A stretch of 64,000 bases of DNA from Phoronis australis (Eukaryota > Animalia > Phoronida). Each line of letters opens with the position of its first letter. Positions within the stretch are counted from its first letter, which is position 1. Shown one piece after another: positions 12,598-55,460 of the stretch. Below the pieces are notes generated by a model. That model searched no databases and was not told the origin of the DNA. It saw nothing but the letters and a program-made list of their open reading frames with translations. Made by a program: the position numbers and the translations under genes. Location of the stretch: assembly GCA_002633005.1 (NCBI GenBank), contig NMRA01000786.1, forward strand, positions 18,981 to 82,980, given 5' to 3'.

Positions 12598-14846
12598 AGT
12601 CAAGTTATTATGAGTGCCTCACTATCTAGCAATAATTTTAATTAGAGATTATCAGTGTATTCTCAGAGATTTTGCATTTTTGCTCGAGTGAGATTTAATT
12701 ATTTTTCAGAAATAGTTTTGTGGAGCTGAAGACCAAATTTCTGGCTCAAGTCTCGTCAATTTTCATGAAACAGACCCCCGCCCATAAGTTGTTATCTTAG
12801 AATATTGTGTTGCATAGTCATATTTGTTGATAATGAGAATCATATTTTGATTTCAATGGTACAGCCCATTGTAACCAATATTGGTATTTTTTGGCATTGA
12901 TAGTCATGGTCTTTTTTTGTTGTTATACTGTGTTCAGATGATAGTGGTAAGATCAATGTTGGCTAAGCATGGTTGTAGTATACACTTTCCTGGATTTGCA
13001 TGACTCATTAAATGGCTCAATTGATTATAGAGTCGAAAAATGCATTTTTGGATTTTGTGTCTGGATAGGCTTCTTGATATTATTAGTGTTGGCCATAGCT
13101 ATAAACATAAAAGTCAATAGTGTTTTATGATTTTATTGGAAATTTCATTCCCTTCAAAGGATTCTAGTCATTCAGTATGGTTAACTGAAATCAAGGCTGG
13201 CAACCTTATCAGTTTAAGCTGCGTTTCACCATGGTAACAGGCAAAAAAATGAATGGAATCATCCCTCTCACCAATATAAAATTGCTTTTGTGGTATTCCT
13301 TACTTTTTTTCTTCGATTTCCGTTACCAATAACAATGAAACCATCAGCGACTCACGAACATGCTTCATAGTTTTTTGGGGTTGGCCATCCCTACTAATCT
13401 CTTACCTGTCATGGCAAGGAATGTCACAAGAGGTTTTGGTTTTTGATCGACTAGCTGTCAGGCCCCAGCTGCTGAGGTCGTGGGTTCAAATCCATCTTGT
13501 GGCTGATCACGAGTACACAACATTTTTGGTGATAATGTTTCTTGATATTTAATTGTTTTTGTTGTTTATATTTAATATGCTTGGTGTTCATCATGTAATA
13601 TACTGAGACCTTCCTTTATTTTCTGTTTGCTGATTAGTTGGTGCCAGGTTATTCATCACGCTTGAAATTCTGTGCTTGCCTTTTATTGAATAGTTTTTAT
13701 TCGTTTCATCAGTATACGGTTATAATAGATGGGATATTCTTAATAACATAGCTGCGCAAAATATGTCTCATGACCCATATGCGGGACGTTTGGGTGGTTA
13801 AAATTGTCAAAAGGACATAAGAAATTGGGTGTCTATGTGTAAGAAGTCGTACCCTCACTACAAGTTACCAGAGAACAACTTGACTCTGTTAAGCTGAAAG
13901 CCCTGGCTTCTCACATTACACCTAGCAAACTAATTAGACACCCCTGTGTAACTGAGCAAGCGTACACCTGGTAATTAATAACTTCCACCTGGTCTGCAGG
14001 TTTGCGTCCACACTTGTGACTTGCACTCGGACAAATTACCGTAGAACAAGTTATTCTATCATAATAACGTGGGCTATGTTGTCGCACGTGTGTCAAGTTG
14101 CCCCATTGCAAACAACATGCACTACAGCTGTAAACCTTGGGACACAAGTGGTCTCAGTCTCACAATTCCTTTTGATACAGCACCCAATTGTTCTGATGGT
14201 AGCAAGACAAGTTTTGGGACACAATCGTGTTGGAAAGTAAAATCACTTCATTGGAATTACTCTGGGAGATTCCAGCATCTTGGTTATGGCCTCAAAAGTT
14301 CTGGAAAATAAAAAATCAATCAAACTTCATTTTAGAACACACGTGGTTAATATGCTATGGTCCACAGTTGCTGTGGCATGAGATATAGGTTTTTGAAATC
14401 TTAATTTTTGTTGAATTTTGCCAGTTTTGAACCTAACATGATAGAAGGTTAATAAGCCATCACCATATTGCTTGTCTCCCAATGTGGAGTAGTTGCTAGG
14501 GGTGAGACGTCATCACTATCTGCCCCTAGTCGTTGACAATTATGGGCTTAATTTTCGTGTAGAACAAGTATAAAAACAGTTAGTGTCCCTTTACATACAA
14601 GTTCAAATCTTTAAAGCTGACACCTTACGTTGTTTTTCTTTCTGGTAATTGCTTTTTCATAACTGAATTTGGTTGCCATTCCCAAACTAATGCATTGAAT
14701 TTAGTTTTTTATTTTAACGTATCTTGTTTCTAAACAATAAGTGCACTTCATTCAATATCTACTTCTTGTCATTTTCAGTATTTTTGTTTAGTGGCGGCAG
14801 TTGTTGTTACAGTGCTATTGCAAAGGTGACTTTTTCTCATTTTCAG

Positions 14847-17800
14847 GTGCATGGATTCTCCAAGACGACACCTTCTCGGTTCAAAACATGATCCAGGTGT
14901 TCAAGGAGAGTGATGTAGACAATGCCATCAAGCAGCAAAGTGGCTCCACTCTCAGCCTACACTGCCCTGCAGAGGGAGACTGGAATTCGGCATTGCTGTC
15001 CAAGCAAGACTTTGCCAAGCACGTAGCGATTAGCATCAACCCCACCGCTGTGGGTGAACCCTCTGAAGCCATTAACCAGTTCACTTCCTTCATGTCTTTC
15101 TTTATTAAAGCAAAGCCCAGTCATGAGCTGATGCAAGCCTCTGATGTCGTGGGTAACATTCGATTCTCTAAGCCCACCATGTATGTGTTTCCCGGGAGCC
15201 AGGGAGACTCGGCTCTCTTCGGCGTCAGTGGATTCAGCCTATTGATAGATGGCGGTTACCAACGGAAGCCCTGCTTTTGGGACTTCGCCAGACATCTGGA
15301 CAGGATCGATGCACTTCTGGTCACCCATATGAATGGTGACAACTTGTTCGGTGTGGCCAATGCCTTAAATCGTAAACTAGAAGATAGCATCCATCCGGAG
15401 ATAGGCCATGTGTTCTTTAACACCAGCCAGAAAGCCAAACATTCCCCCAACGGAGACTTGCACCCTGAAGCTGGCGGGCTGATGAAGGATTCCAGTCAAC
15501 TAGTCAACCTTGTTGAATGTGGTGACAAGTTGATAGAGAACCTGCACGCCCTAGGTCTGCCACCACAGCCGTGCACAAGATCCATGACCGATGGTCAGCA
15601 TCCTATTAACCTTTATCATAAAGTTGGACATGGGCGTTTGGACATGTTTGTCCTCAACCCTGTCCAAGATAGCAAGGAGCTGAAGGATTTCTTTCAACAG
15701 TGGAACAAGCGCGTGACTAGCTTCACCTCCGTCAACCAGATACCATTGCCAAACGTTACATCTGTAAGCGCATTACTGGTGTGGCGACCAGCAGACCCTA
15801 GGGAGAAACTTACAAGGATACTGTTCCCTGGTGCTGCACCGCAAGCCAAGATATTCGAAGGCTTGGACAAAATCAAGAATCTGGATTGTCTCAAGCATGC
15901 CACTTGCTGTGACAATGATTTCCACATCAAACACCCTACAAAGAAGCCCGCTTCAAAAGTCAGCAAGCCTATGGCTAAACCCACTCCACAGGTGGTTGTT
16001 GTCCAAGACAAGCCAGCAAGGTCTAAACCATCAGCACGCCCAGAGAAAACAACCAAAGATGTTGCCAACAAGAAATCCACCTCAGCCAAAGAGCAAGCAC
16101 CAAAGAGCAGATTTGAACGTTCCAAGACACCATCTCCTCCCGTCAGGAGCCCCATTCTGACTCCAGTTCATGCTGGCACCCCTACACCTGAGGTGAAGGA
16201 GGAACCTGCTGCCCTTCTGGTTACTCCAGTGGCTTCCCCACCTGAAGAGCCTGCACTGATGGATGAAACTCCTCGCTTGGCCTCAGATGAGGCTCCAACA
16301 CCACCTGTTGCAAGCCCTGAGCCTCCTGCGGCTAGACCGGAGTCTCCTGCAGCTAGTTCTGAGTCTCCTGCAGCTAGTCCAGAGCCCCATGTAGTTGAAC
16401 CTCCACCTGCAGAGCCTGTAGATGTTTATCCTCAACCCGTTGATAACATCGGGCGGGATGTCACACAAGAGGCTGGTGAACAAGCTGATTTGATAGGAGA
16501 CTTCGAGGCACCTACTCCACCAGCCAAGGACGAACCTCCAGCAGAACCATTTATGGCATCAGAGCCACCAATGGATGCCACAGCTGAATCATCTGTGGCT
16601 CCATCTGTGGAGGATGAACCAGAGCCACTCCATGAGCCACCTACTGAAGACTTGTTGGGCGGCTATGCTGGTGAACCTAAACCTGACGATGAATCTGTTC
16701 CAGCGCCATCTGAGGCTTGGCCATTGGAGGCTGCTACTGCAGCTGATCATATACCTGAAGCCCTTCCTGAACCACATGCTATTGATCCCAGCATGTTACA
16801 ACCTGCCCCTGTAGTACCAGATTATGTAACAGAAGGCTATGAAAAACATTATGAGGAGGAGAAAGATGTTGACACAGCGGCTGTTGAAGAAAATGCTGAA
16901 GAACCTGACGTGGGTGGTGTAGGTGATGCTGGCATTTCTGTAATGTCAAACGTAACTGCATGTCCAGATATCGATAATGCAGCTGTTCAGGAAATGCCTG
17001 AGAGCTCCTTACAGAGCAAGTCTCAACTTGAAGAGTTAGGTATCTATGACGATGATGAGGGTAATGAAGAGTACCCAGAAGATGGTGCTGAAGATCAACA
17101 CCTTGCCAGTGGTTACGATGCCAAAGAAGCAGGTCATGCTGAGGATGAGGATGTGGACCTTGAAGCTCTGACGCAAATATCCAACGAGGACATAATGCAG
17201 CGTAGCATGTATTCAGAGGAACCACTTCCCGTCAGTGAACCCACCGATGTCACTTCTTTGGCTGAACGGAATGTGAGAGATGAACCTGTACCAATGGACA
17301 TTGACACTTCTGGGGAATGGGGTGAAAGTGATAAAGTAGCTGAGCAAGAACTCCCAGTGGACACGGAGGCTGATGACTTGACGACTGTTTGTACTAGAGA
17401 TAACCCACCTGATCTCCTTTCACGACCAGATTCAAGCGACGGTTGTGATGATGTGAGTAGCTTACACGTGGAACCATCACAGAGTGAACTGGATTTTGGC
17501 AAGGTGGACGAAGACGTTGCTGAGGCTGAACGTCATCGCCGTGAGTCTGGAGGTGAGAGCAACGACGTTGATGACATTGACGACGACTACAGAGAAGAGG
17601 ACGAGGCAGCAGACGGTGATGTGAACGGAGGCGCATATGACAACCAAGCTTTCAGCGTGGGTGATGATGGGCAAGAAGATCCTTCACTGCAAAAGCCAGA
17701 ACTGTCTCCACCTAGTGGTGAGCAGAAAGTTGATGGTGAGCCTAATGGGGTTGATCTGTTGTCTGACTCACCAGGTGACGCCCAGACTCCTGTCAATGAG

Positions 17801-18856
17801 ACAGGTGAAGCACAGCCTGACCTGTTTGCCCACTTTGACGCTCCGCCTGAGCAAGCAGCAGTGAAGCAAAAGTCAACTAATCCGTTTGAAGCTGACTTTG
17901 ATCCCTTTGCTCCATCAAGCCAGGCTTTGCAACCTGAATCGACGGAAGACTTACCAGCACAGCCAGGAGAATTTGGTCTGCAGTCTGAAGCTAGTGGTGT
18001 CCAGTCTTTTGACCCGCTGAGAGACTGGGGTGAGCCACTGGGACTTCCTGCTCCTCCACCCCCTCCTGAGGCGAAGGACAACAAGGCTGCTGCTAAAAAG
18101 CCATCTGCAAAATCAACCACGACAAGGAAAACCACCACCACCACGACAGCCTCGAGAACAAAAGTCACAGAGAAGACAAAGACAGAAAGTCCTAAGAAGA
18201 GTCCATCTCCAGCAAAGTCAACTTCGTCTGCGTCTTCAAGAACAAAACCAACTGCGTCAGCCGCGACTAAAGCCAGATCTAGTCCGTTGTTAGCTGCAAA
18301 GAATGGGCCAGCAGGAGATGGAAAGAAGGCTGATGCAGTGAAGCAGACGAAGCCCCGCCCTGCAACTGCGGACAGGACAAGCAGGCAAGACGAAAAGAAA
18401 CCTTTGTCCAGTCGCGTACAATCTCGGTCAGCCGCCACTTCTCGCAAAACAACCACTGGCTCTAAGACCAACGTTTCTGGCAAAGCACCCCCTGCCTTGG
18501 CGCCTGTAACTCCCAGCTATGTGGACTTGACATACGTACCGTACCATGCCAATCCGAAGTATTCCGATTTGGATTTCTTCCGTCGCGTCCGCGCCCGTTA
18601 CTACGTTGTAAGCTGCTTGCATCCAAGCCCGACTGTGTTGAATAATCTGGTCGAAGCAAAGCAAACCTGGGAAGACAAAAACCTGGAGGTGACGATCATA
18701 CCGACGTACGACACGGACACTTTGCGCCATTGGATGGGTCTTCACCGCGACCGACTGTCCGAGCTTAAGATTGACGTAGCTCCATCCGCCAGCCGATGCA
18801 CGATTCAGCTTCAAGATCACGAAACCAGCTGTTCTGCTTACCGCTTAGAGTTCTAA
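14847..18856 (+). CDS. futsch: MAP1/futsch-family microtubule-associated protein, 4010-bp terminal coding exon (heavy-chain remainder plus light chain)
   Basis: Acceptor tttttctcattttcAG ends at 14846, inside the 1351-aa ORF. Conserved MAP1 motifs: KPTMYVFPGSQGDSALFGVSGFSLLIDGGYQRKPCFWDFARHLDRID, LYHKVGHGRLDMFVLNP, ALLVWRPA, RILFPGAAPQ, then K-rich and acidic/Pro-rich linkers, WGEPLGLP, and the C-terminal light-chain domain YVDLTYVP...RVRARYYV...IIPTYDT...SCSAYRLEF*. Confidence 0.97.
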
Positions 18857-38939: not shown

Positions 38940-41210
38940 ATAACATTGACGTGTTTTGTCGTCACACGACATCAAGGTTTAAAAACAAAGGACTTACACT
39001 GTAAGTACACGCAATGCATACTTTGAGTTTAACTTCAGGTTGGTACTGTATGTTACAAGACGTTTTCTTCATCCGTAATTTTAGGCGATCCCGGAAAGGA
39101 TGCACATGAATATGAACTCGACAGAAAGCTGGAGGAGCACATGAGACGGGGAATCCCAAGAGAGGTTTCAACTTAAAAAAGTTGCAGAATTTTGGTTCAT
39201 TTCAGTGTTTCTTGTCACGCTTAGTGAGTAAAATGTGAAGTCACCCTAATTCCCTCTCTAATCTTTCCCAGAACACGAACATTAATATTTTTTTCGTACG
39301 ATCTCCGAAATGAATACTTTGCAAAAACGTGCCTGCAGATTTATAATTAGTAAGTATCGGGACAGAGCTGAATTTTCGCTAAACCCGAAAGCTGCACCAG
39401 AGACAGGATGGGGAGCAGGCAGACCAGAGTCGCTGAACGCCTAAGAGACTTTGAAAACTATAGTCGGTACTCGATTTGGCAACGTGCAGGTCGTCAAACG
39501 ATGCAACTTCAGACTGTGTTTGGCTATCTGGGAAAAATCCTAAGGCCAAGAAGTCGCCATGTAGCAGAGGCGAGAATCAGTGGTGACTTCCAAACCTTAA
39601 ATTACTAACGCTTTCCCTAGATGCAATACATTTGATTCACAATTACTTCGTGAAATTAGTGTATTTGCCACCTTCAACATTCACCAATCTTTACAGGGTG
39701 TAAGCACAGTGCAGTCGGATCTGTTCGGCAAAAAGCAGGCAAAACCGAAACATGAAACACCCGCCTCCGATCGACTGCGTTCCTTGTTGGAAGGAATAGA
39801 CCCGTTCCGGATTACACGGCGAAAGAATTCTCCTTTTTTTCTGGAGATGGGAAAGCGCGTGACCTCGTTTTTGCAAATCAGGCACATTTGCGTGTCTCCC
39901 ATAGATATCGGCCTGCGACGAATTTCAGATCACGCATTCATGGGTAAAAGTTAAGATAATTAAACTTTCTCTGTTGGAGCCCACAGCACAGCATTAATCG
40001 ACCTCATTGGAAATGGAAGGACGAACAGAGTAATGCAACGGAGAAAAGATGCGGAGGTTTACGGCATATTGTGGGAAAATACAGCGAGATTCGAGTTTCG
40101 CTGGTAATCCGGGACAGCTCTGTTGAGTTAGAGATTGAATGGCCAGGAATATACATGCATGTGCCTTAACTAAAACAGGTTAGTCACCAACTGCGCCATG
40201 AGCTTTCAAATCTTAGGAGCCCAGACAAAATGCTAGGGCTCCCAGAGTTTTTGAAGGATAATTGCGATAATGAAACAACAATAAAACGAACAAGTCGGTG
40301 GAGTTATCGGCCTTAAATCTAAAAATGTACATGTACCTCGATCGACGGTTGCACTTAAAACTAATGTAGTTTCCAATAAACAGGAAAGGGTAAAAGGTAA
40401 ACATGCTCAACTTAATAATAAGTTTCGCGGGAACCATGCAATGAGCGGAACCACTCCTTCAAAAAACATTTAATTTTGGTTTAAAAGAATTCAAACAAAG
40501 ACCATTGAATTCATGGCATACTGATTTCACGGGAAAGATTTTTTAACACACTAACTGATCATAATTGTATGAACTACAACAGAAAAACTTTTACTTGTCT
40601 CTGCTGTCTGTTATTTTGAACTCTTCTGATGTGGCGTACAATCCTAATGAGATTTTTCACTGGAAAACTGGTGCACTTTACTTGCCGTGCTCCTTTTTGG
40701 TAAGCCGACGGTTTCAGTGTTCACCGTCCGAGAGTTTTTAAACGATCTAGAGCGCTTGTTTTATTCCTAATGCTCGTTATATTTGTGTTCTGGTGTTCAG
40801 TGAAACATTGGCTGCAAAACGCCGCATAATGCATTGAACAATTTGTCAACTTCGTCTCTCAATCTCCGTACAGCGAGCGAACGTTTTTGATTGACCTCGC
40901 TATGTTTTAATTGACCTAGGTATATACATGTAAATTAGTTAAGCACATGCATTTGCTGTGAGCATACACTGTAGAGCTCTAACCGTGGAATACCAACTCC
41001 AATATGTGACCAAAGTACATGTATTGCGACTCTGAGACTGGCCACAGATCAAGTGTTGTACATGTAGTTATCAAATCAAGCCCAATTCCATAGTAATTTC
41101 GTTTTCATTTTAACATTTTTGTTCATGAAGCGACACTCTTGAGCTACGATTTTAGACAACCAACAATTTCCAGCAAAACTAATCAACAAACTCTGCAATT
41201 GCATCAATTT
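38940..41210 (+). repeat. Tandem segmental duplication, copy A
   Basis: Collinear with 41490-44610: 38940-39060 matches 41490-41610, 39300-39680 matches 41980-42410, 40270-40520 matches 42700-42930, 40530-41200 matches 43965-44600. Confidence 0.9.
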
Positions 41211-41489
41211 TACAAACATGTGAAAACGAAGAGATAACAATTATACCCGCATACATACGCACATGCACACTTGTGGTGGGGGTCATTTGCAAAACAAGAC
41301 TCAACTCCCTCAAAATAAAAGTACCAAAGGGGCACATCTGTTATTAAAATCTTCGAATTTTAGTTAACTGTAAAACAAATATTTTTCAATTTTTGACTTA
41401 CATTTTAAAGAATGTCAAATTGGAAGTTGTGTTTTTACGACCCGCCGATAAATATGAAAATTTTCTAGACATAAAATTAAATTAATAAC

Positions 41490-44400
41490 GAACATTGACC
41501 TGTTGTATCATCACATGACAACCCAGTATAAAAACAAAGGGCTTAGGTACAAACAATGCATAGTTTGAGTTGAACTTCAGGTTGGTAAGTTACAAAACGT
41601 TTTTCACATTTGCAATTCACACTGTGTAACTTAGTTAAGGCGATGCACATACATGTAACTACATAAATTCGAATTAAGGCAACTGGGAGAGCACGTGAGA
41701 CAGGACAGGGAATTCCTCTGGAGATTTTAAGGAAAGTTTCAGAATTTATCCGTGTAAGCGTGAATTTTGGTTTACGATTAGTGAGTAAAATTAACACGCC
41801 AATAACTGCACAAACCTTTCCCCGAGAACATCCCCATTGACAAATCCTCCGAACACATTAGCGAATTGTGCACAGTCTTAAATTGTACACCTTGCATTCT
41901 GATAGGAAAAGCGAGTGTGAAGAACGCCCTTTTCGTCCATAATCCTGGTTATCTCTTCCTGATAATGCTTATCTAATGACGATCTCCAAAAGTGATACTT
42001 TAGAAAAAAGTGGCTGCAGTTTTATCATTGTTAAGTTTCGGGACAGAAGCAGATGAATTCTCACTATACATGAAGAATTTATTAGTTACAGAATGTGGAG
42101 CTGGCAGACCAGAGTCTCTGAACGCCTCAGAGAGTTTGAAAACTACGTGTATAGTCAGTGCTCGATTTGGCCACCTGCAGGTCGTCAATGAGGCTTCAGA
42201 TTTTGTTTAGTGACCTGGAAAAATCACGGCCAAGTCACCACAAAGTCACCACAGTGCGTGCCGAATTCAAGACAGAAACCAATTCCTCAGAAATTCGTTC
42301 CAACAATTTTGGTGATTTCTAAACTTAAAATTACTACCAGTTTTCCTATACGCAACACATTTGATTCCCAATTGTTGCGTTTACTTCATGAAATCAGTGT
42401 ATTTGCCACACTCAGCAGTTACCACACGTTAAACAGTCACTGGCCGCCCCGGATTACACAGCGACACTTGAATTTCGCTGTATACACCCACAATACCATA
42501 AACATCCGCCAGGCACATTTGCTGCCTCGTTTTCATGCCACTGGAGTTTCACATGTTATTTGTTGTTGTCTGATACTTTACAAGTTTGCCTCGGTTCCAT
42601 TGCTCGTTTCGTCCTTTCAATTCCCATGACGTATTACTGGTGTGCTGTGGGCTGCAATTCCGACGTGACAAATTTTGATAATGACATGAACCAACAAGAT
42701 AATGAACAAGTCGATGGAGTCCGTAGACCTTAAATCTAAACATGTACCCCGATCGACGGTAACACTTAAATCTATGAAGTTTCCAATAAACAGAAAAGGT
42801 TTAAAGGAAAATGTGCTTATATATAACTTAATAGCAGGTTCGCTGGAGTCATGCAGTGAGAGGGGTACTTCAAAAATATTTAACTTCCGTGCAAAACAAT
42901 TCAAACAAAAGATCATTGAATTGATGGCATACTAACTGGTCTTGCCAATACATCAAAAATGCTTAGAATACTGTGTTCAGCTAAGTTTAATCGTGGTCTG
43001 CCGTCACGATCACAGCAGAGGTAATCACCCTTTGAAGAACGGAACTCTAATGAAAATCAATAACTCAGATATGTGCTTAATATTGACACAAGATACTAAT
43101 AAAACTAATCATGGAACGACAACCCTTTCAATGAAATCAATAACTGTTCAGATATGTGCCTAATATTGACAAAAGATGCCCAAATTATCAGGAGACAATA
43201 ACTCTTTCAAGATCAATTTTCTGATGAAATAAATAAATATTCTGATATGTGCTTAATATTGACATAAGATACAAAAATAATCAAGAAACAACAGCCCTTT
43301 CAAGAAAAGAATTCTAATGAAATCAATAACTGTTCAGATATGTGCCTAATATTGACAAAAGATGCCAAAATAAACAGGAGACAATAACCCTTTCAGGAAA
43401 AGAATTTTAATGAAATCAATGAGTGTTCAGATGTCTGCTTAATATTGACAAAAATACTAAAATCAATATTTCCAAAGAATGGAAGGACAACATCGATAAA
43501 ACGCCGAGCTTGTTGTGCGTAGTCCCAATTAATTCAAGGTACGACCGCCGCGGTCCTAGTCATGGACTGGAAGTCGGGTCAAGCTTTCAGTCGAATATTT
43601 CAGTTTCCTGCAATAGAATTTTTTCCGAAAATATGCAAAATAGTAAAGCATCGTCTGGTCTTTCCAATTACACCAAATTCACCATCCACATTTCATCGTA
43701 TGTGTCAAAACATTACTCAGAAAACGTCAACTGAATTTAACATAACCTCGCTGTGAACTTATTGACACCGCAACCTTAGGCTGAGACACGTCTTTACATG
43801 CACATGTAATTCAAACTAATAAGACACAGCTTCCAGATCTATCTAAAAATTGCCGTTTTTGTCGAGGCCTCTCTTTTTGACACCGTACCAAGGTCGAAGT
43901 ACGGTTGTAGGTCTACGTACGCACTCAGATTCAAGTGCCGACTCCATACCAACGAACTCAAAATTTCGCAGGTAAGATTTTTGAACACACAAACTGATCG
44001 TTATTGCATAGACAACAGAAAAACTTTCATGGTGTCTCTGCTGTCTGCTATTTTTGTGGCGTGCAATTCTTTATTTTTAACTGGAAAATTGGATCACTTT
44101 ACTTGCCGTGCTCCTTGTCGGTAAGCCGACGGCTTCATTGTTCACCGTCCAAGGAATTTGAAACGATCTATCGCGCTTGTTTTATTTGCAATGCTCGTTA
44201 TATCTGTGTTTTGGTGTTCAGTGAAACATTTGCTACAAAACTTCGCATAATGTATTGAACAATTTGTCAACTTCGTCTTTTAATCTCCGTACAGAGAGCG
44301 AAAGTTTTTGATTGACTTAGCTATGTTGACCTAGGTATATACATGTAAATTAGTTAACCACATGCATTTGCTGTGAGCATACCCTGTAGAACTCTGGCCC

Positions 44401-44610
44401 TGGAATACCAACTCCAATACGTGACCAATTGCGGCCCTGAGACTGGCCAAAGATCAAATGTTGTAGTAATCAAATCAAGCCTAATTTTATTGTTTCGTTT
44501 TCATATTGATATTTCTGTTCATCAAGCGACACTCTTGAGCTACGACTCTAAACAACCAAAGATATCCGGCAAAACTAATCAACAAACCCGGCCATTACAT
44601 TCATTTCGGT
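41490..44610 (+). repeat. Tandem segmental duplication, copy B, with about 1-kb insertion at about 42935-43960
   Basis: See copy A. For example ttacttgccgtgctcctt..ggtaagccgacgg and aagcgacactcttgagctacga occur in both copies. Confidence 0.9.
43020..43465. repeat. About 90-bp tandem repeat, 5 copies
   Basis: Unit ccctttcaagaaaagaattctaatgaaatcaataactgttcagatatgtgc(t/c)taatattgacaaaagat..aaaataa..gga.acaata. Confidence 0.9.
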
Positions 44611-45459
44611 GATTCTTTATACACACCTACCCGTGGCCCTGACCGGATCCCGGGAATTGTCTGGCCTCTGATATCTTTTCATCTCCAGTCTCACAACCAT
44701 TTTCGACAATCAATTAAACTACATGCTAGGAGTTTATTTTGGGTGTAAAAATCATGAATCATGTTTCTGTATTTTTAGGAAACAAGTGAAATTTGATTTC
44801 TGTGTGTCTGTTCTGCAATTATAAATGAAAATTATAGCCCCTACTAGCAGGTGGGTTTAGGTGACTTTCGAAAAACAACTCGTATTTGCGTAGCCACGTG
44901 TGTATGCTTGTGTTTGCATAAATGAGTACTGTTTTCAATTGTTTCTATACTAAATCATCTGTGCAACGTTTACCTGTTGTTGAGATGCTTTTTGTTAACT
45001 TGATTTCGTAGCAATGAATCTTTTCTGTCGTACTTACATATAACCGTGAAATTAAATTCAAAAAATAAAAATATTTCTGGTAAAAAACCCAAACGAATAC
45101 TTTGTGTTGCTCACAGCGTATATTGTACTTGTTATGAATATTTCTGTTTTCTAGAGTCCACTTACTATAGTAGCATAACAGTCGTAAAACTGTATTTCAT
45201 TGTTTACGGCAACATACTCTACATGTGTATGTGCCAGGATCACTACATGTATTTTCGTTCTGAAGAAATTGGTTTATTTACAAACTAATGTAAGTATGGA
45301 AAGTCCTATACTGCAACCCATGTAGTAATCTATCCACAGTTTGGCGACTTGGGATTTTACGAAATCGCATTTGCCATCTTGACGTCAAGCTAAGCACTGA
45401 TAGCACTAATTACTCTTTTAATGGAATACCCACCATGCACCTCCGAATCATCTGACGTA

Positions 45460-45655
45460 ACACTGACAACTTTATTTGTTAGCATACCCGTACCCAGCTT
45501 GGGTGGGTGCGAAGCCAAAGGAAGCGAATGAAATCCGGACTTCAGTCGTCTGTGTAAACTATTGTAGAAAATTTCGTGATGACCGGGACTTGAACCCGGG
45601 TTGCACGAGCGCCAGTCAAGCATCTAAACCATTCGGCTAAGAGGCAATTGCCGCT
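45460..45655 (-). mobile_element. tRNA-derived SINE (Pol III head plus body)
   Basis: Minus strand reads A box TAGCCGAATGG then B box GGTTCAAGTCC within a paired ccggg-ttcaagt-cccgg T-arm. No acceptor stem, so not a tRNA gene. The 3' boundary is approximate. Confidence 0.7.
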
Positions 45656-45660
45656 TGTGT

Positions 45661-45765
45661 AATTTTTTTATTTATTTAATTATTTATTTATTTATTTATT
45701 TATTATTGTGATATTTAAAATGAGGGTGGCCTCTTCAGTGATAGCACTGCTTTCCGAGAGGGCCC
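45661..45765 (-). mobile_element. 3' tail of a LINE or SINE with (TAAA)n end
   Basis: Minus strand gggccctctcggaaagcagtgctatcactgaagaggccaccctcattttaaata (stem-loop cagtg-ctat-cactg) followed by (TAAA)n. Confidence 0.6.
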
Positions 45766-47217
45766 ATCAGAAGAAAAATGTGATCTCTAGCACAAATACA
45801 TGTATTTTGATCGAACAAAGTGCAGCTTTTACATAACAAATCACTAAAAGAACAGTCATCTAAGCATTAAATCTCGAATATCGTCAAAACTGTAGCAAGA
45901 AACGAGTTCCACAATGGTGATAGCGATCTATACACGTACCAATTTCAGACTGATTGATTAAGGGACACCGAAGATACGGCAAAAAACTCAATTAATCTGA
46001 GACCATTCTTCAGTAAATCTCGAATAACTAGAGAACGGTAAAACCTAGAGAAAAGCAAAAACGACACAATTATGATAGCCCTTGAAATTATCAATTCATA
46101 GATAAAATGAAAAAACAACACTATGAGAAACGGTAGAGCTGTGACTCCGCAAACCAATAAAGGCGCCATCGTGCGAAATATAATTGCAAACAACGTTTAC
46201 TTTATAATAATTTTTTTCCTGGCAAAGTCTTGCTTTTGTTTTATTGCATATGCTGTTTAACTAGGCTTTATTAAACCTTGTTTTACCGATCCGTCGCCCA
46301 GAATGTAATTGTAATTTGCAGATCGGGCAAACATCTACATGTAGCTTTGAAATGTATTGATTACAGCTTATTACACTGGCTGCAGTGTAGAATTTCCCGT
46401 AGAAGCTTAGAATTAAACTTATTTTTTCACAAGTAAAAATCAGTGATACTGATATATGTTTTGTGCATCACCGTAAACAAGAGACATTGGAACACATTTT
46501 AATTGTACAATTGTTGTGTTACTAAAGAAACTTGGACTCTGGAGAATAAAATCTGGTTAACAAAGACGCAATATTCTTTGTATCACCTGTTGCATAGTTG
46601 ACAACATGCGAGACTTACGATCGGGACAACTGGATGGAAAAGCGATACATTCGGAAAATGGGTCCACAATGAATGTCAAAAAGTAACTGAAAAGGTGAAA
46701 TATTCGCCCGATTACATTTTTGTTTGTTTTTAATGGACCAGGAAATTGTAGATTCCGCAAAAACCGATGAACATACCATGTTCTCCTTTTAAGTTGAACG
46801 GCAAAATAGGGCTAGGTAGCGTTGGAAATCATAATTGCATATGATATTATGTCAATTTTGCCGAGTGCCAAAAAGTGGGGCATTTTGATGGTGTAACGGA
46901 AAGCCGGAAAAAACATCATAAAGAAAACCAGTGCACATATAACAACGATCATTCCTTCACCTTGTTCGCTTTGTCTCCGCCTAAAACTGTTCAGTTTTTT
47001 ACCAATGTTGAACAATATTAGCTATGTTCCTAGCTACTCCCACGGCCTCATATTCAAGGTGATTTGTATTTTGTATAAGGCCATACCGTTATTCAGGATA
47101 AAAGACGAGCTATTGTTTTTTGTTATTGCTAATCAGTCATGTCTAAAACCTTAAATAATAAAATTCAGGATGCAGTGATATTTTCAAAAATGCGACAAAC
47201 TAGTTACTTAACTACCT

Positions 47218-47400
47218 CAGTGGCGGACCCAGGATATCGCAAGGGGGAGCCAACATTTTGTCCGGCTATAAGCATTTGCGCAAACCACGATTGTAGGCGC
47301 ATAGCACCGAATGTGGGGAGGTCGGGAGGGGGGTTCGCCCAGGAAAATTTTCTGTTTTTTCCTCTAAAAATCAAGCATTTTCCTTGATTCCTGAAGTATT
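47218..47400 (+). mobile_element. Left part of a CAGTGGCGGA-type MITE
   Basis: Begins cagtggcggacccagg, followed by G-runs and ccaggaaaattttc. Same terminus class as 52306. Right TIR not found. Confidence 0.5.
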
Positions 47401-48483
47401 ACCCAAGAAATAAAGGAAAAAAAAAAACGGAGAACGTGTCAAACAGGAAGAATGCAAGACACCTGAGACTCGAACTCACAACCTAGCGAACAGAGCGCGC
47501 ACGCTTCCTGTGTATACTAAGAGACCTACTTGTTTATGGTCCACAGCGTTTGCGCGCGAAACTTACTTCTTTTCGTAATGCTTATTACACGTTTTATATT
47601 TTGTGCAATCGGTTCTTAACAAATTTGTTGTATTTAAAATGCCCAAAAGACCAAATCAGTTTTTCGTGTTGGCAATAATGACGTCTTAAGTTAAGGTTTG
47701 ACAAAGAGAGAATTATGAGTTTCTTAATGATTCACTAAGGCTTCGATTAAAATTCACTTTTTACCAGCAGCTTCTGTTTTTTCATCGTCACTCATGTTCC
47801 ATTTTCTTTAAAAAATGAAGTAAATTTTCTTCATTGCACAGTGGAGCAGACGACGGAAACGGAGTCATAGTGCGCAGCGGCACTGCCGGTCGCCTGGGAT
47901 ATCGCGGGAGAGCCTATACTTAGCCATAGTTCCGTTACGAATTTGACACTTGAAATTGGATCTGAGCTAAGTAGGACACCACTGCTGCTATGCACTGGGC
48001 TGTTACGAAAGTCACCCAGATTCATGACCTAACATTTTTAAATTTGAAGTTTGAAAGGGTAATGCCAACTTCACATAAAAGTAGTCTGCACAAAAGTTGT
48101 TCAGAATTCAATGGAGATTTTCACCATATACATATCTTTACCATAGCCTTGGTGTAACTAATTCTATAAATTTTCAAACTGGACACCCTTTGTTTTTATC
48201 TGTTTTCGCACATGAGAACATTAGGCCTACTCAAAAACCGTAATAAGCATTTTTAAAAGGGAATTCATGGGACTTGCATGTTTAATAAAGCAGATTTATT
48301 GTCTGTAACATCACATCTACAAACAAGAATGTACAGTATATAACATACCTCAACTTTGCACGATAACAAATTTATGACTGGTGCAGTCGCTTGTTAAAAT
48401 CTGTTTTGAAGTTCACTTTGGTGTGCAAAAACTTGAAACACGGGTGGAGACACAAAGCTATTTTGTGAAAGTCACAAAAATAT

Positions 48484-49056
48484 CTATAGTTCTGAATGAG
48501 TTCCATCATGTTTCAGAGGCTCTGTATTATGCGCGAAGGGCGTGAGCCAAGCATCGTCGTAGGCCCGTCCAAGTTCAGCTTCAGGGACCGGTAACTCCTC
48601 CAAAACTGCACTGAGATCGGAATCGATAGAATCTGCATTACTTGTGACTGTATTAGTTTCCCAGTCACTGTCACCGTCACTTTCGAGTGCCAATTCCAGC
48701 TCGTTTTTACTATCTAAGTTCATGAACACTTCCTCAAGAAACTGGTCAACAGTCATCTTACCACATTTGGCACCAGCCAAGATAAAACTTGCGTAAACTT
48801 TCAAATATCTCGGCAACAACTCAGCACAGCCATATCTTGTAAATCAGAAAAATATACCGGAAACTATGAACTGTAGAATACGCATGCTCACATATGTAAA
48901 CAGCGTACGGGGCTTTCACATCAGTGTCCTGGGGTGAGTACACCCTCCTCGCGCAGTCTAGCAGTAGCTGATTATAGGCGATTGAGTACACCCGACGAAC
49001 TTTAATAGGATAATTGGCTTGTCGGCTGACCTCGCCTAGCGCAGTATAAGTGTTAA
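48484..49056 (-). mobile_element. Possible piggyBac-like 5' remnant
   Basis: Acidic ORF MTVDQFLEEVF..ESDGDSDW..WLTPFAHNTEP..SEL resembles piggyBac transposase N-termini. Repeated gagtacaccc motif and a TTAA-CACT.. terminus near 49055. Confidence 0.4.
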
Positions 49057-49409
49057 GAAAGTGCACTCTTGAAAATAATATTCATAGCATAGACTCAATG
49101 TTATTTTGAACAGCTGCATACAATGTAGCAGTCACGGTAAACATTCGACAGTTGAATTGAAAATCTCGATTTTCAGATAAAAGCGGGGCATCTGGGCCTA
49201 AACCAAGCCGCAATGGTGAATTATAAGTCGCAACACACAAAAAAGTCCCGACCATGGTTTCTGTAGAACTGGAGACGTAACACCTCAAAGCGCCCGTACT
49301 TTTTTCTTGTTTTTTTTTTGCGAAAAACATAAATCCCCGTTTTTCTTTTTAGTCTAACAGTAAAGTAGTGCTGGGGAAATTAAAGTATTATATGTATACG
49401 TCAATTTCG

Positions 49410-49535
49410 TCGTGTGTCACGTGGGACATTTTGACGGGGAGGGGATTTAAAAAGTGGGACGGTGCACCAAGGGCGGAACAATGAGTACGCAGTCTGCAAC
49501 ACATATCAATGAATTGGATTCTTTTAGAAGGTAAA
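49410..49535 (+). promoter_or_regulatory. Possible promoter and non-coding first exon for the 50644 gene
   Basis: CACGTG E-box, G-rich tract and GGGCGG GC-box, then donor-like GAAG|GTAAAT at 49531 (alternative CAG|GTAACC at 49631). A candidate acceptor cctaat...ccctcAG ends at 50605, 38 nt before the ATG. Confidence 0.3.
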
Positions 49536-50643
49536 TTTTCCATTTTTCAATTTTTTTTCACGGGTATAGTTAATTACTACAGATAACAGTATTGCTCAGA
49601 AGTCGAAGTTTAAAAGCATCTGGACAACAGGTAACCGTTGCGAGTGAAGGCGAGTCTGCGAACAGTCTTGATTTCAGAGCTGACATTTCTGAGTGGTAAC
49701 TACATGTATAACCTTTTTTCTTGATTCCCGAATTAATTCTCTAACCAAATCAATGTCGAGTAATATGTACAGTGTATAAATCTCGAACTGTACATCTATA
49801 ACCGAAGTTTTTGTCGTGACTGTCAAAGCCCAGTCGTGAATAGCGGCCATACTGATTTCATTTCTTCAATGCCGAGTGTGTTTGCTATTTGCGATTATAT
49901 CTAATTATTGTGATGCTAACTGGATTTTATTTCTGATAAATGATACTATATAGTCTTGTCTGTTCCAAAATTCCTGCTTACCGGCGGCAGGGCTGCAACT
50001 AAGTCAAAGTCAATATGCGCCTGGCAATTCCTAGCAATAGTATAACACAATAGAAACCTTCATCAACGAAATATATTCTCATTTCCTCTGACCTGTCGAA
50101 CTTATGGCCATGTCGTGAATGGTTTCATTAGCTTTTACTCCGCTTTCTGGCATGACCCATAGTGTAAGGCCATGATCTTTTGTTCGGGTAGTAGACTACC
50201 TGAGTCACTGTTCATCGGTAAGCAGTCTGTCGTGTCTGCCATGTTAAAGCCTAGCCTGTATCGGAGTTCAACGAGGCTAGGACCTGGCTAGAAATGCAAG
50301 ACCTCGCGAGATTTCGGGAGATGTTGCCGTGAACTTGAAAGAGAGCACGTGATTTTGGCTAGACTTTTTAGTCGCGAGACAGCTACTGAACACTGATTAA
50401 AATGCTCTGACGTAGACAAGAAATCAGTAAGTGCGTTAGGATCTCGTCGACGCTGTTTCAGTAGTTCATGCCTACGCTGCGTGTCATTTGATGCTGGATG
50501 ACAGAAGTGTGATCCAAGGACATTATTAATAAGACAATATCTCCGCAATACTATATTTCGGGTCAACAATTCAGAGAGGTTGACCTAATCAGTTGTAACC
50601 CTCAGATGATATTGCGAAGCCGCCAGTACCGGTACTGACGATC

Positions 50644-51912
50644 ATGAGTCGGCTGAATGTTTTTTCGGCGTTTAATCAAGGCGAATCTAAAGCGTTTTTC
50701 ACCGAATTCAAACAAACCATCAAATTCGATCGTTCAACAATCGCCTTCCGGCTCGCCCTTGAGGGGATTTATTACATCGGAGATCGCGTGATTAAATCCC
50801 AAAGTTTTAAACAGGAAACAATGAAGAGAATTGACACTGTGTTTCAATATCTACGTCAGCAGGACCGTCATAGAAAACAAAGGCCGGAAGAAAACAGATT
50901 GGCAGACGCTTTTGCGCAATTTGTAAACCTAAAGCGTATAAGCAGGAATGAGTTATCTCAATATTTTGAAAACGATGAAGAGAAACGAAATGCCATGTTT
51001 GACAGCCTTGTTCAGGCCGGCAAGCAGCAGGATCTGCTAATTACTGTACTGGCACTTCAAGCGCTTCACTGCATGGAGAACGATTCCGATTTACATGAAG
51101 GTCAGTGGAATTTAGGTCTAAATGACTGTGAGTGGACTGAAAGTTTTCGAGAGTGTCTTAGAGAATGGCGCAAAGAATCGCAGTGCTTATATTACAAAAG
51201 CGACGCTCTAAAGTACCTCATTCGAAGTGTGTTAGAAGCTCTGGAAATATTCAAGCATCTGAAAGTACCGCTATTTATTGACAATTACGGTCACAAGGAA
51301 ACAAAGTTGAGCACAGAAATTGATGGTGATACTCCAATATACCATGATACACACAAAGCGGAGGCTGATCAGATAGTGGAAGATGGAAAACTTAAGCCTA
51401 GTGACAACAAGAACATTATCCCAGGGGTATGGTTTGGGCTTTACAGTAATGAGAGTGCCTATGGCTCACACAGGTTTGAAACCACGCTCTCTAGACTAGG
51501 TGTAACCGGACTTCGACAAGGTGAGATTGTCGCGTATAAGAATGAGATTAATGTGATCCTTTACGCTCATAAAGACCCTGGAGGAGACTTTTCGGGGTTA
51601 AAGTGGCCAACTGATGCCCACGTCAAAACAAGAAACCCAAACGCATATGTTCATATATCAATATTTGTACCGGAAAACGTTTTACCCAATGACAACTGGG
51701 ATAATGTTCTGACAGACCCTTTCGAAGTCCAGCACGGGCCAATCTGTGTAAGACAGAAGCGAACAGGTAAATGTCCAGATAAGCCAGAGCAAAGAACAAA
51801 AACAGGGATCTGTGACCGTTACAACAACACAGGGGAATGCAATCCTAATTGCGTTTACCGTCACGTGTGCGAACATTGCGGACGTGAACACCCCAGACAA
51901 TTATGTCCATAG
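50644..51912 (+). CDS. Uncharacterised 422-aa protein: helical death-fold/CARD-like N-terminus, ADP-ribosyltransferase-like (PARP/PHYHIP-C-like) core, CCCH plus zinc-knuckle C-terminus
   Basis: Uninterrupted 1269-bp ORF in stop-rich DNA. Motifs: IYHDTH, IVEDGKL, PGVWFG, SAYGSHRF, YKNEINVILY, and terminal C-x8-C-x3-C-x3-H then C-x2-C-x3-H-x4-C. The ORF is well supported; the domain labels are inference. Confidence 0.85.
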   Translation: MSRLNVFSAFNQGESKAFFTEFKQTIKFDRSTIAFRLALEGIYYIGDRVIKSQSFKQETMKRIDTVFQYLRQQDRHRKQRPEENRLADAFAQFVNLKRISRNELSQYFENDEEKRNAMFDSLVQAGKQQDLLITVLALQALHCMENDSDLHEGQWNLGLNDCEWTESFRECLREWRKESQCLYYKSDALKYLIRSVLEALEIFKHLKVPLFIDNYGHKETKLSTEIDGDTPIYHDTHKAEADQIVEDGKLKPSDNKNIIPGVWFGLYSNESAYGSHRFETTLSRLGVTGLRQGEIVAYKNEINVILYAHKDPGGDFSGLKWPTDAHVKTRNPNAYVHISIFVPENVLPNDNWDNVLTDPFEVQHGPICVRQKRTGKCPDKPEQRTKTGICDRYNNTGECNPNCVYRHVCEHCGREHPRQLCP

Positions 51913-52305
51913 GAACGAAGAAACACATTAATCACAGTTCTGTAGCCGAGAGGCCCTGGGATGAATCAAAGTCACAGGAAAGAAAAACGAAAAAGGTTGT
52001 GAGTATGCACATGTTGATCTGTCCACTGGACTACACCTAAGAGTGAACCGATCGAGTGTTCATCGCAAGAGACAGGAATACTTCTTGAAAAGGCCGTGTT
52101 CAAAGCTTCAAGCAGAATTTCTGTCATCTGTCGCATTTTAGTAGGCAATTAAGGTGTGCGTCTTTGGTATTCATCCCCTAGGCAGTACAAATTTCTTTCC
52201 AGAACATTTGACCCTGCCGTAACACAAAGTACGGTATTCTTCAGTTTAAAGTGAAAACTAAGAATGCATTTAAAATATTGTAAAGTACACAAAGTATATA
52301 GATGT

Positions 52306-52414
52306 CAGTGGCGGATTTAGAGGGGGCCAGCTTCCATTTGGCAGTTCGGGGGAAATTCTGGCTAATACTCTATTTGAAGTGCCCCACCAACTCAAAATCC
52401 TGGATCCGCCCCTG
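52306..52414. mobile_element. 109-bp MITE with 5-bp TSD
   Basis: TIRs cagtggcggat and atccgcccctg. GATGT at 52301-52305 and 52415-52419. Confidence 0.85.
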
Positions 52415-52474
52415 GATGTATTTACAAAAGTTGCATCATAAATGTACATGTACATACTGTGGTAGAAAGCCAGC

Positions 52475-52830
52475 TAGCTGTATGAAGACTTTCGTCAACA
52501 TACAGCTAGGTAGCCGTGTGTAGAGCTCCGTTAGACACCGAAATTTCACACAACCTGGGTGCTCAGCTCGTCACTTCGTCGTGAAACTTAGAGCTAACAA
52601 CCTGCTTTAGTGCAGGGGTGTATGCAGAATCTGGGATTGTATTGACATTCACAATGCACATTACAGCCGTTTGTAGAAGCAAAAAAAATCTAACATACGT
52701 TATTCTTCGCAATTCTCCGCCTTTTGTAACAAAGGAAAATCCTATCTGCCGTCGTTTCGAAAACTGTGCAATCTCGTGACACGCGCACGTACTCGCCATT
52801 TCCCAAAGCTTTGCGATATCTCTCGAGAGT
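52475..52830 (+). repeat. Dispersed repeat, copy 2 (paralogue at 23420-23790)
   Basis: Same collinear blocks as 23420-23790. Confidence 0.75.
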
Positions 52831-53179
52831 ATTATCTGAAATTGTACCATTTTACTGCATATCGAGTGAAAATAAAAATACTATAACTTATAACTTTAGA
52901 AGGTTTTCCCCGCCCATGACGATAGCGCCTCATTAAGAAACAGAGCAGTTCAGCAGTAGTTGGACAATATTTCCTTGTTTCAACCGATGAAACCGTCCGC
53001 CTTTGATCTCACGACAGTTGATACCTTGTTAACATTTATTCAGCGAGGAAAAAAGACTTAGCGTAGCGGTTAACAAAAGAAAGATTCATATTTCTAAAAC
53101 CGGGCGGTGTCGTCTGGAATGCGGACTAAGTGTTATTTAATTGTAATGTTCACATTCAGAGATGCGTGCAGTCTCGATG

Positions 53180-53590
53180 TCATACCTTCAGGGGTACTAT
53201 ACGGAAGCACACGCACGATCATCGCTCTTCGGCACGAACCACCTGTGAAGCTATGAATCATGCATACGAACACAAAAATCACACAAAAGGAACAAAAATC
53301 ATGCACGCGAACCATGAAATCCTGCATACGAACAAAAAATCATACACACGAGTATCGAATCATCGCACGAACACTGGTTTGGTGGTTCGTACGTATGATT
53401 CGTATTTGCTCGTGGGTATGATTTATGTTCTTGTGTGTATGTAATTTTTGTGGTTCTTGCTCATGATTTTTGTTCTTATGCGTGATTTTTGGGTTAGTAT
53501 GCATGATTCACGAGTTCGTAAATGCATGATTTACAGGTTGACGCGTGATACGCAATGCTCGTGCTTACGATTCTATATGCCACCCATGAG
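53180..53590. mobile_element. Foldback-like palindrome built from about 20-bp sub-repeats
   Basis: aatcatgca(t/c)(a/g)cgaac repeats to the left of about 53378 and their reverse complements (gttcgta..catgatt) to the right. Confidence 0.75.
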
Positions 53591-54384
53591 CTTGTTTATC
53601 TAGTATTTAGAGTTCTTATCACTGGTCATGTTAGGCCATATTTAGTTTTTGTTAAGGGTATGGACAAGTAGTTGATTGTGTTTACGAATTGTGCGGTGAA
53701 ATAAGCAAATGTTATTTTTGAGCCTCATGAGTGAAACCCTTATATTATATAGCCCCGCCCCGAAGAGGGGGGCTACCTCATGGGCGGCACGCCTGATGAT
53801 CACCAAGAGCGTCGCTCTTTGTGATACTTGCATATTTTCTATGTTCTGCCTTGTGTTCTATTTACGTTTATGGGATTTTATTTATAAAAAACTATAAAAA
53901 ATATTCCTATTGTTCAGAACTTCAATTGTTGTCGTTATTGCTAGAAACCTGTGAGTTAGACTGAACTGAACCACGCGGATTGGTCTTCGATTGTTTCTGT
54001 ATTATTATGTAACCATTTTCTCAGAGAGATCGAATTGGTTTTGAGAGGTCGGCCAATCAGTTGGAAGATTTGTAGGTCATTACTTTGCAGTTGAAGGTTT
54101 GACTTGGGATGTAGTCATTGTTTGTTCTTCAGCGGTCGATGAAGGAAGTGGGTGTCTCAGCGTCAGGCTTTAGCTTCAGTGCATTGGTCACTCAATTCAC
54201 ATGGAAGTGCTATAGTGTCATTGTTTTGTGTTATAAAATATCATTAATTTGGTATGCATGTTTATTGAGATAATACATAGTAAGAGGTAATTAGCGTAAG
54301 ATTGTAAACTATAATAGTGTGTGGTAATGATTGTAATGTTTTGTTTGTGTATGGAAATGTGGATGCATCTTTCTGCTGCATCTG

Positions 54385-55022
54385 TGGCAGATTGTCACCC
54401 ACCTTTACAGTTCAACATATTATGTAACTTTTGTAATTACCGATATCTGTAGTAGTTTAGTTTGTCATAATATATATGACCTTTTATCTCATCTACACGT
54501 GTTGTTACACTGTAAACTACATTCGGTATCGCTTCGCAGTTAGCGCATATAAAAATTATTTAAGTATTAAATTATTTTATGTAAGCTAGCTATACTGCTT
54601 CGTCCTCATTATCATATTGTTTAGATTCTCGGGTCAGTGACCCTCTTTGTTCTACGATTATTGGTTTAATTGTACCACGTGATCTCTTTGTCTCGTCGCA
54701 ACACTGGGCCATCGTCCACAATTCTCTCCAAATTTCAGTTTTCACTCAATTTCTCTTTCCCTCCCTCCCGCAAAACCGTTTTCCTTACTTCCCTGTTTAT
54801 CCTTACCTTCCCCATGTCGCTGTCCCGGTGTTGCTGTTTTGCTTCCGCATATTATTACTTAACTTTCTATTCAACACTTATGTATACCTTCATTGTTGCT
54901 TGGCAGATTGTCACCCACCTTTACAGTTCAACATATTATGTAACTTTTGTAATTACCGATATCTGTAGTAGTTTAGTTTGTCATAATATATATGACCTTT
55001 TATCTCATCTACACGTGTTGTT
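54385..55022. repeat. Identical 122-bp direct repeat with 516-bp period, running into the gap
   Basis: 54385-54506 is identical to 54901-55022. Confidence 0.9.
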
Positions 55023-55460
55023 NNNNNNNNNNNNNNNNNNNNNNNNNNNNNNNNNNNNNNNNNNNNNNNNNNNNNNNNNNNNNNNNNNNNNNNNNNNNNN
55101 NNNNNNNNNNNNNNNNNNNNNNNNNNNNNNNNNNNNNNNNNNNNNNNNNNNNNNNNNNNNNNNNNNNNNNNNNNNNNNNNNNNNNNNNNNNNNNNNNNNN
55201 NNNNNNNNNNNNNNNNNNNNNNNNNNNNNNNNNNNNNNNNNNNNNNNNNNNNNNNNNNNNNNNNNNNNNNNNNNNNNNNNNNNNNNNNNNNNNNNNNNNN
55301 NNNNNNNNNNNNNNNNNNNNNNNNNNNNNNNNNNNNNNNNNNNNNNNNNNNNNNNNNNNNNNNNNNNNNNNNNNNNNNNNNNNNNNNNNNNNNNNNNNNN
55401 NNNNNNNNNNNNNNNNNNNNNNNNNNNNNNNNNNNNNNNNNNNNNNNNNNNNNNNNNNNN
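55023..55460. other. Assembly gap (438 N)
   Basis: Run of N. Confidence 1.

Follow-up and report, generated by a model that had tools for sequence, protein, structure and literature searches.

A predicted ADP-ribosyltransferase-fold protein from a multigene family of corals and sea anemones, and its possible role as a defence effector

What kind of protein is encoded by P0001, a 422-amino-acid (aa) open reading frame (ORF) at 50644..51912 of a 64,000-nucleotide (nt) stretch of contig NMRA01000786.1? The original prediction, made from the letters of this stretch (the window) alone, described an intact ORF among decayed transposons that joined a death-fold-like region, a minimal core like that of an ADP-ribosyltransferase (ART) and a zinc-finger tail in a candidate immune effector. 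Our preferred answer is that P0001 is a divergent member of an ART-fold family, likely a cytoplasmic effector of defence that consumes nicotinamide adenine dinucleotide (NAD+) and is probably restrained by its own helical N-terminal module; we put the probability of this reading at about 0.45. Coordinates are those of the window, and features lie on the + strand unless marked otherwise.

Translation of 50644..51912 gives 422 aa and a stop codon without interruption, within an open frame of 437 codons from stop to stop, while the longest frames in 30 base-shuffled windows had 121–200 codons; both results bear out the claim of an intact ORF. Every motif quoted earlier was found, in the order given: YHDTH (233–237), IVEDGKL (244–250), GVWFG (261–265), SAYG (271–274) and YKNEINVILY (298–307). 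The predicted structure has a helical N-terminal half and an alpha/beta centre, which, together with the Cys/His tail seen in the sequence, agrees with the layout first proposed.

Three stranded RNA runs with the same species label (X1, X2 and X3) were mapped on the locus, with likeness thresholds of 90 and 95 for the two mappings. In X3, all seven 200-base bins of 50412–51818 were covered at a depth of 1.5–5.8, by first mates on the minus strand only, and neither a joint nor a difference was listed. A MAP1-like control gene on the + strand gave the same read orientation, so the X3 signal represents sense RNA and not DNA carry-over, with a depth similar in order of magnitude to that over the coding part of the control in this run (2–15). 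The check for transcription that had been proposed thus yielded sense RNA over the ORF in one run, and the single-exon gene is intact, transcribed and real. Continuous one-strand depth in 200-base bins of X3 outlines an approximate transcribed span of 50412..53900, with a short 5′ leader and a long 3′ region, partly overlapping repeats. X3 was the only run to cover the ORF; X1 and X2 had zero depth over its bins, though 18–51 on the control. These two runs share a single-nucleotide polymorphism pattern at the MAP1-like gene, from which X3 differs, being closer to the window. Gene absence, silencing and tissue difference are alternative explanations for the silence of X1 and X2, and a presence/absence polymorphism is possible.

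A single-sequence search found 28 relatives of P0001 and a profile search 153, of which 120 are listed. Against 1.84 billion representatives, the profile gave 46 matches at E 0.001, every one of which scored as a family member, with no tail of distant relatives and no non-family match; 19 of the 32 new sequences from this search were inspected. The named members are uncharacterised proteins of Oculina, Porites, Montipora, Acropora, Exaiptasia, Dendronephthya and Paramuricea, covering hexacorals and octocorals. Judged by sequence, P0001 belongs to a large, unnamed multigene family of corals and sea anemones, which is likely limited to Anthozoa. Relatives were not found in viral contigs, prokaryote genome contigs or phage records, and a match in one of 401 bacterial genomes (E 0.0016) was rejected as being about the chance expectation. 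Sequence searches of the PDB gave no meaningful match, NCBIfam, PADLOC and PHROGs gave weak, scattered matches only, and the ESM Atlas gave no usable match for whole P0001. We found no description of the family, or of five member identifiers, in literature searches that mostly covered listings; de Souza and Aravind 2012 and Aravind et al. 2015 might list it. The ART-fold family is apparently undescribed so far.

The matched region lies in one uninterrupted frame at all seven metagenome loci (L001–L007), and six pairs of family matches, the two of each pair on contigs of equal length, suggest tandem copies. A FastTree analysis of 130 of 134 rows (four were left out for short cores) gave lineage-wise clusters, one of which holds all three named octocoral proteins, and left P0001 at the end of a long branch of uncertain position, not grouped with P0157 or P0161. 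Several members have rearranged forms: P0155 is a whole-gene tandem fusion, P0012 a scrambled double, and P0157 and P0161 carry a doubled helical module. Longer fused forms were absent among proteins of 705–2010 aa, which is weak evidence (537–704 aa was covered only by the single-sequence and 1.84-billion searches). Between the core of P0001 and those of distant members, dN (the nonsynonymous rate) is 0.35–0.59, and dS (the synonymous rate) is saturated for six comparisons and reaches 2.6 for one. Of the 261 residues compared in the closely related pair L002/L003, 57 differ; dN/dS for this pair is 0.86 (bootstrap 0.52–1.57), with 1.48 for the helical module against 0.64 for the core. The sole listed change at a motif position sits at a ragged alignment end. 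This one pair is suggestive of a helical module that evolves faster than the core.

The centre of P0001 is predicted to form a divergent ART-fold core (aa 207–381; 51262..51786), modelled with a pLDDT (per-residue confidence) of 87.1 and a pTM (whole-model confidence) of 0.83. The model has the split beta-sheet topology of ARTs, and structure searches from two separately built models returned the ART superfamily almost exclusively, with Tpt1/KptA as top or tied-top matches and TASOR and PARP13 also among them. In the ESM Atlas, the leads for the core, including Tox-ART-HYD1, exotoxin A and PARP clusters, scored 0.79–0.80, under the reliable range. Model and structure searches thus support the ART fold first proposed, and we regard this fold as very probable.

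Motif definitions for the ART clades were taken from PMC7955679 (cited from part of its text, as are the other sources marked "in part"), and conservation is counted over the 122 rows of the family alignment. Motif I, H234-x-T236 (51343..51351), keeps its His in all 122 rows and its Thr in 119, and takes the form H-V-T in 111 members. Lying on strand 1 as H-x-[ST], His234 fits the motif I role assigned to it in the original prediction. It is in register with His21 of diphtheria toxin and His440 of exotoxin A, if the starts of the match ranges are followed by no gap. Strand 2 and the segment after it, assigned from strand order, comprise G261-x-W263-F264 and S271-x-Y273-G274 (51424..51465), where W263 is kept in 119 rows, F264 in 121 and Y273 in 114, with Phe in a further 7. 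Trp263 stands where the H-Y-[EDQ] clade has its strand-2 Tyr, and no row has Tyr at this position, as placed by strand order; Tyr273 would be the second Tyr after strand 2.

The candidate catalytic acid or acids lie in the strand 4–5 hairpin, Q292-G-E294...E301-x-N303-x-I-x-Y307 (51517..51564; strands 289–298 and 301–309 in the model). E294, on strand 4, is invariant, and E301, N303 and Y307 are kept in 113, 117 and 119 rows. E301 opens the predicted strand 5, while N303-V-I-L-Y307 fits the PARP E-Y-I-V-Y better; with N303 at the Glu position of the latter, E301-x-N303 would be a two-residue motif. The earlier choice of the KNE Glu, Glu301, as the catalytic residue is uncertain, since it is less conserved than Glu294 (113 vs 122 of 122) and the register also fits Asn303. 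The alignment by hhalign with four HYD1 domains covered only the first strand and helix and left the strand-5 register unfixed. Asn257 and Gln292 are nearly or wholly invariant, like H234-x-T236 and Glu294. Towards the end of the core, a family element (51733..51774) comprises H364 (107 of 122), C368 (107), R373 (108) and C377 (108), with 12–14 rows gapped; His364, Cys368 and Cys377 may join the near-invariant His237 in a structural zinc site common to the family and distinct from the tail private to P0001.

The family is not easily placed among known ARTs. With the H-Y-[EDQ] enzymes (diphtheria toxin, exotoxin A and the PARP catalytic domain) the core shares the predicted order of its strands, a strand-1 H-x-T, a second Tyr following strand 2 and a candidate acid close to strand 5. 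The PARP family (PF00644) gave no Pfam match, and the PARP1 ART domain was not closely similar in structure. The family differs from the housekeeping H-H-h enzymes Tpt1/KptA/TRPT1 in being multi-copy and in having no second His at motif II. Tox-ART-HYD1 (PF15633) shares strand 1 and the start of the helix, and P0155 and 2 of 101 members score weakly against it, but the match is limited to about 25–29 columns, below the cut-off, with the remainder unaligned; the best score, summed over a doubled protein, was 22 bits against a cut-off of 25, its best stretch being profile positions 1–25, and hhalign gave 2%. For Tox-ART-HYD2, which is reported in cnidarians with the signature GFY, unlike this family (PMC3482391, in part), no match was listed. 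The Crinkler-like ARTs AACRN and AACRNL are likewise multi-copy animal proteins, including cnidarian ones, with a proposed role in genomic conflict (PMC12957317, in part). As described there, they are set apart by a ubiquitin-like or degenerate ubiquitin-like N-terminus and an HGT motif, neither of which is found in the P0001 family, with its all-helical module and H-[VD]-T.

The original prediction had also noted a likeness to PHYHIP, whose C-terminal domain we take to have a similar motif order. This did not hold at the level of sequence: PHYHIP_C (PF19281) is unlisted in any Pfam scan of family proteins though its profile is in the library (one scan showed 25 of 27 families), and PHYHIP has an FN3 domain that P0001 lacks. 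PHYHIP is unmentioned in the main text of PMC10450202 and PMC7955679 (both in part). The core resembles a minimal H-clade ART but falls outside PARP, Tox-ART-HYD1, the canonical H-Y-E group and AACRNL and, by sequence, outside PHYHIP_C.

The N-terminal half (aa 1–206) reads as the family's own helical module, present twice. N2 (aa 103–206; 50950..51261) is the standard one, with six predicted helices, and is probably regulatory. N1 (aa 2–77, helical to about aa 99; 50647..50874), modelled with low confidence, appears to be a degenerate extra copy: a homologue-only profile scores it at 17.0 bits in context and aa 1–100 at 22.3 bits, against 13.5 for the best of 2000 shuffles, and it is 44% identical to the extra module of P0157 over 50 aa. 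The CARD or death fold proposed earlier is unsupported because N1 and N2 represent the same duplicated module. No Pfam death-fold profile matched P0001 at E 10, or aa 1–100 and 101–206 at E 1, and structure searches that covered aa 1–206 within the full-length model, of moderate to low confidence there, returned generic helical-repeat matches only.

The C-terminal tail carries a CCCH-like finger, C-x8-C-x3-C-x3-H (aa 390–407; 51811..51864), and a knuckle-like C-x2-C-x3-H-x4-C (aa 409–421; 51868..51906), the latter at a pLDDT of about 42–56. The Cys/His pattern that had been described is real, but the finger scores below the zf-CCCH cut-off (PF00642; E 0.37, 11.2 bits vs 20.5), with a spacing of x8-x3-x3 against the required x8-x5-x3. 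It is, from its spacing and score, CCCH-like only; its weak library matches include the CCCH zinc-finger protein 6nzl (E 0.026) and tristetraprolin (E 1.6). Neither pattern occurs in any of the 189 other stored proteins, and the fusion would on this distribution be a single-copy accretion, not a family trait. Tail matches in viral contigs were rejected: three span only 9 residues, and the match in L097 lies in no open frame of 60 aa or longer. PARP12 and PARP13 (ZAP) also carry CCCH-type fingers and an ART fold on a single polypeptide (PMC10450202, in part). ZAP differs in its four N-terminal CCCH fingers, WWE domains and Pfam PARP domain, compared with one short C-terminal finger and a knuckle in P0001, and the pairing is at most convergent.

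Under our preferred reading, a soluble enzyme would bind NAD+ via a predicted site formed by His234-x-Thr, Trp263 and Tyr273, and Glu294 or Glu301 would support its cleavage, leading to mono-ADP-ribosylation or NAD+ depletion. The obligatory, faster-evolving helical module may act as a variable gate, sensor or inhibitor, and the tail of P0001 would tether the enzyme to RNA, by analogy with the CCCH fingers of PARP12/ZAP. Activity on NAD+ is reasonably probable; a role in defence has about an even chance. A family that has expanded, shuffled its modules and is patchily expressed matches what PMC8195603 (in part) describes for conflict and immune genes of sessile marine animals, though not for this family. 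The immune role claimed at the outset is plausible from such indirect signs.

That the core is instead a pseudo-enzyme, binding nucleotides or nucleic acids or serving as a scaffold without NAD+ turnover, is unlikely. Trp at motif II and a possible Asn at the strand-5 Glu position speak for it, as do the matches to TASOR and PARP13, both listed as inactive in Table 1 of PMC7955679 (in part). However, near or complete invariance of His234-x-Thr, Asn257, Gln292 and Glu294 argues against it; many active mono-ARTs lack the Glu (H-Y-I/L; same table), and HopF1 takes its acid from another strand, though activity was not shown there (PMC3384090). An active enzyme with a non-immune task, such as Tpt1-like processing of nucleic-acid ends, or stress or germline signalling, is quite unlikely. 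It would agree with the Tpt1/KptA matches and with the spread across hexacorals and octocorals, but housekeeping genes do not typically have many paralogues, diverge fast, duplicate a module repeatedly or show patchy expression, and the RNA-binding N-terminal lobe of Tpt1 is unmatched (chain ranges begin near residue 85).

It is improbable that P0001 is a selfish passenger carried by transposons, the mode of spread reported for AACRNL. A single exon, multiple copies and repeat-rich flanks favour this explanation, as does the tail, which presumably resembles retroelement Gag fingers. For Gag proteins of the Pat1 type, PMC4157794 bears out no more than the presence of zinc fingers. Against the passenger explanation, the clearest inverted repeats (44963–49641; about 4.6 kb apart, 90% identical over 30 nt and 73% over about 160 nt) end upstream of the ORF, which only one weak 26-nt pair encloses. 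The likeness of L001–L007 to the window is confined to the ORF, the copies are old (dS saturated), and no transposase or reverse transcriptase Pfam match was found in nine neighbouring ORFs. The decayed transposons first described hold as a repeat-rich setting, but no transposon protein was detected by Pfam in these nine ORFs. The 44963–49641 pair is probably a decayed DNA transposon; inside it lies an acidic frame (48484–48843, − strand) with no relevant Pfam match, which we take to recall a piggyBac transposase N-terminus.

That the core is no ART homologue, its matches reflecting a common split-sheet arrangement, is very improbable, given almost exclusively ART matches from both models and a motif His in register. 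A conserved three-part architecture of CARD or death-fold adaptor, ART and RNA sensor, as originally envisaged, is hardly tenable despite six helices in about 100 aa of N2 and the CCCH-like tail spacing, with N1 and N2 copies of one module, no death-fold Pfam family in P0001 or its halves, and the tail in 0 of 189 other proteins.

Elsewhere in the window, the strand control (14792–18856, +) is an ordinary MAP1-family exon, a 1354-codon frame with MAP1B N-terminal and MBL-like domains, expressed in X1–X3, with a likely splice acceptor near 14844. This exon marks the window as animal DNA, and the relatives of P0001 suggest an anthozoan host. A degenerate segmental duplication occupies 38942–44606 (pieces 75–81% identical, about 2.4–3.4 kb apart). 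Just past the stop codon of P0001, short multi-copy repeats resembling miniature inverted-repeat transposable elements (51920–52600) draw numerous RNA reads, from both strands, that match only in part. At 54385–55460, a 122-nt perfect direct repeat beside a run of N (55023–55460) is likely an assembly join artefact, and the run of N also accounts for the spurious long frames in that segment.

Our most far-reaching proposal, rather unlikely when taken whole, is that the family may be an unrecognised anthozoan clade of active ADP-ribosyltransferases or NADases with an H-W-Y site and the catalytic Glu moved to strand 4. Its genes would form a defence arsenal that is polymorphic, varies in presence and absence and is gated by the helical module, P0001 would have independently gained RNA-binding fingers like those of ZAP/PARP12, and the clade may link vertebrate PHYHIP as a hidden ART. 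The ART-fold families catalogued in humans are the PARPs, ecto-ARTs, TRPT1, TASOR/TEX15, LRRC9 and NEURL4 (PMC7955679, Table 1, in part). The altered active site is directly testable by a few point mutants, and the family offers a route to the PHYHIP–ART question. Animal ART-fold families are few, and an expanded family that Pfam and hidden Markov models leave unplaced would give coral defence a candidate arm based on NAD+.
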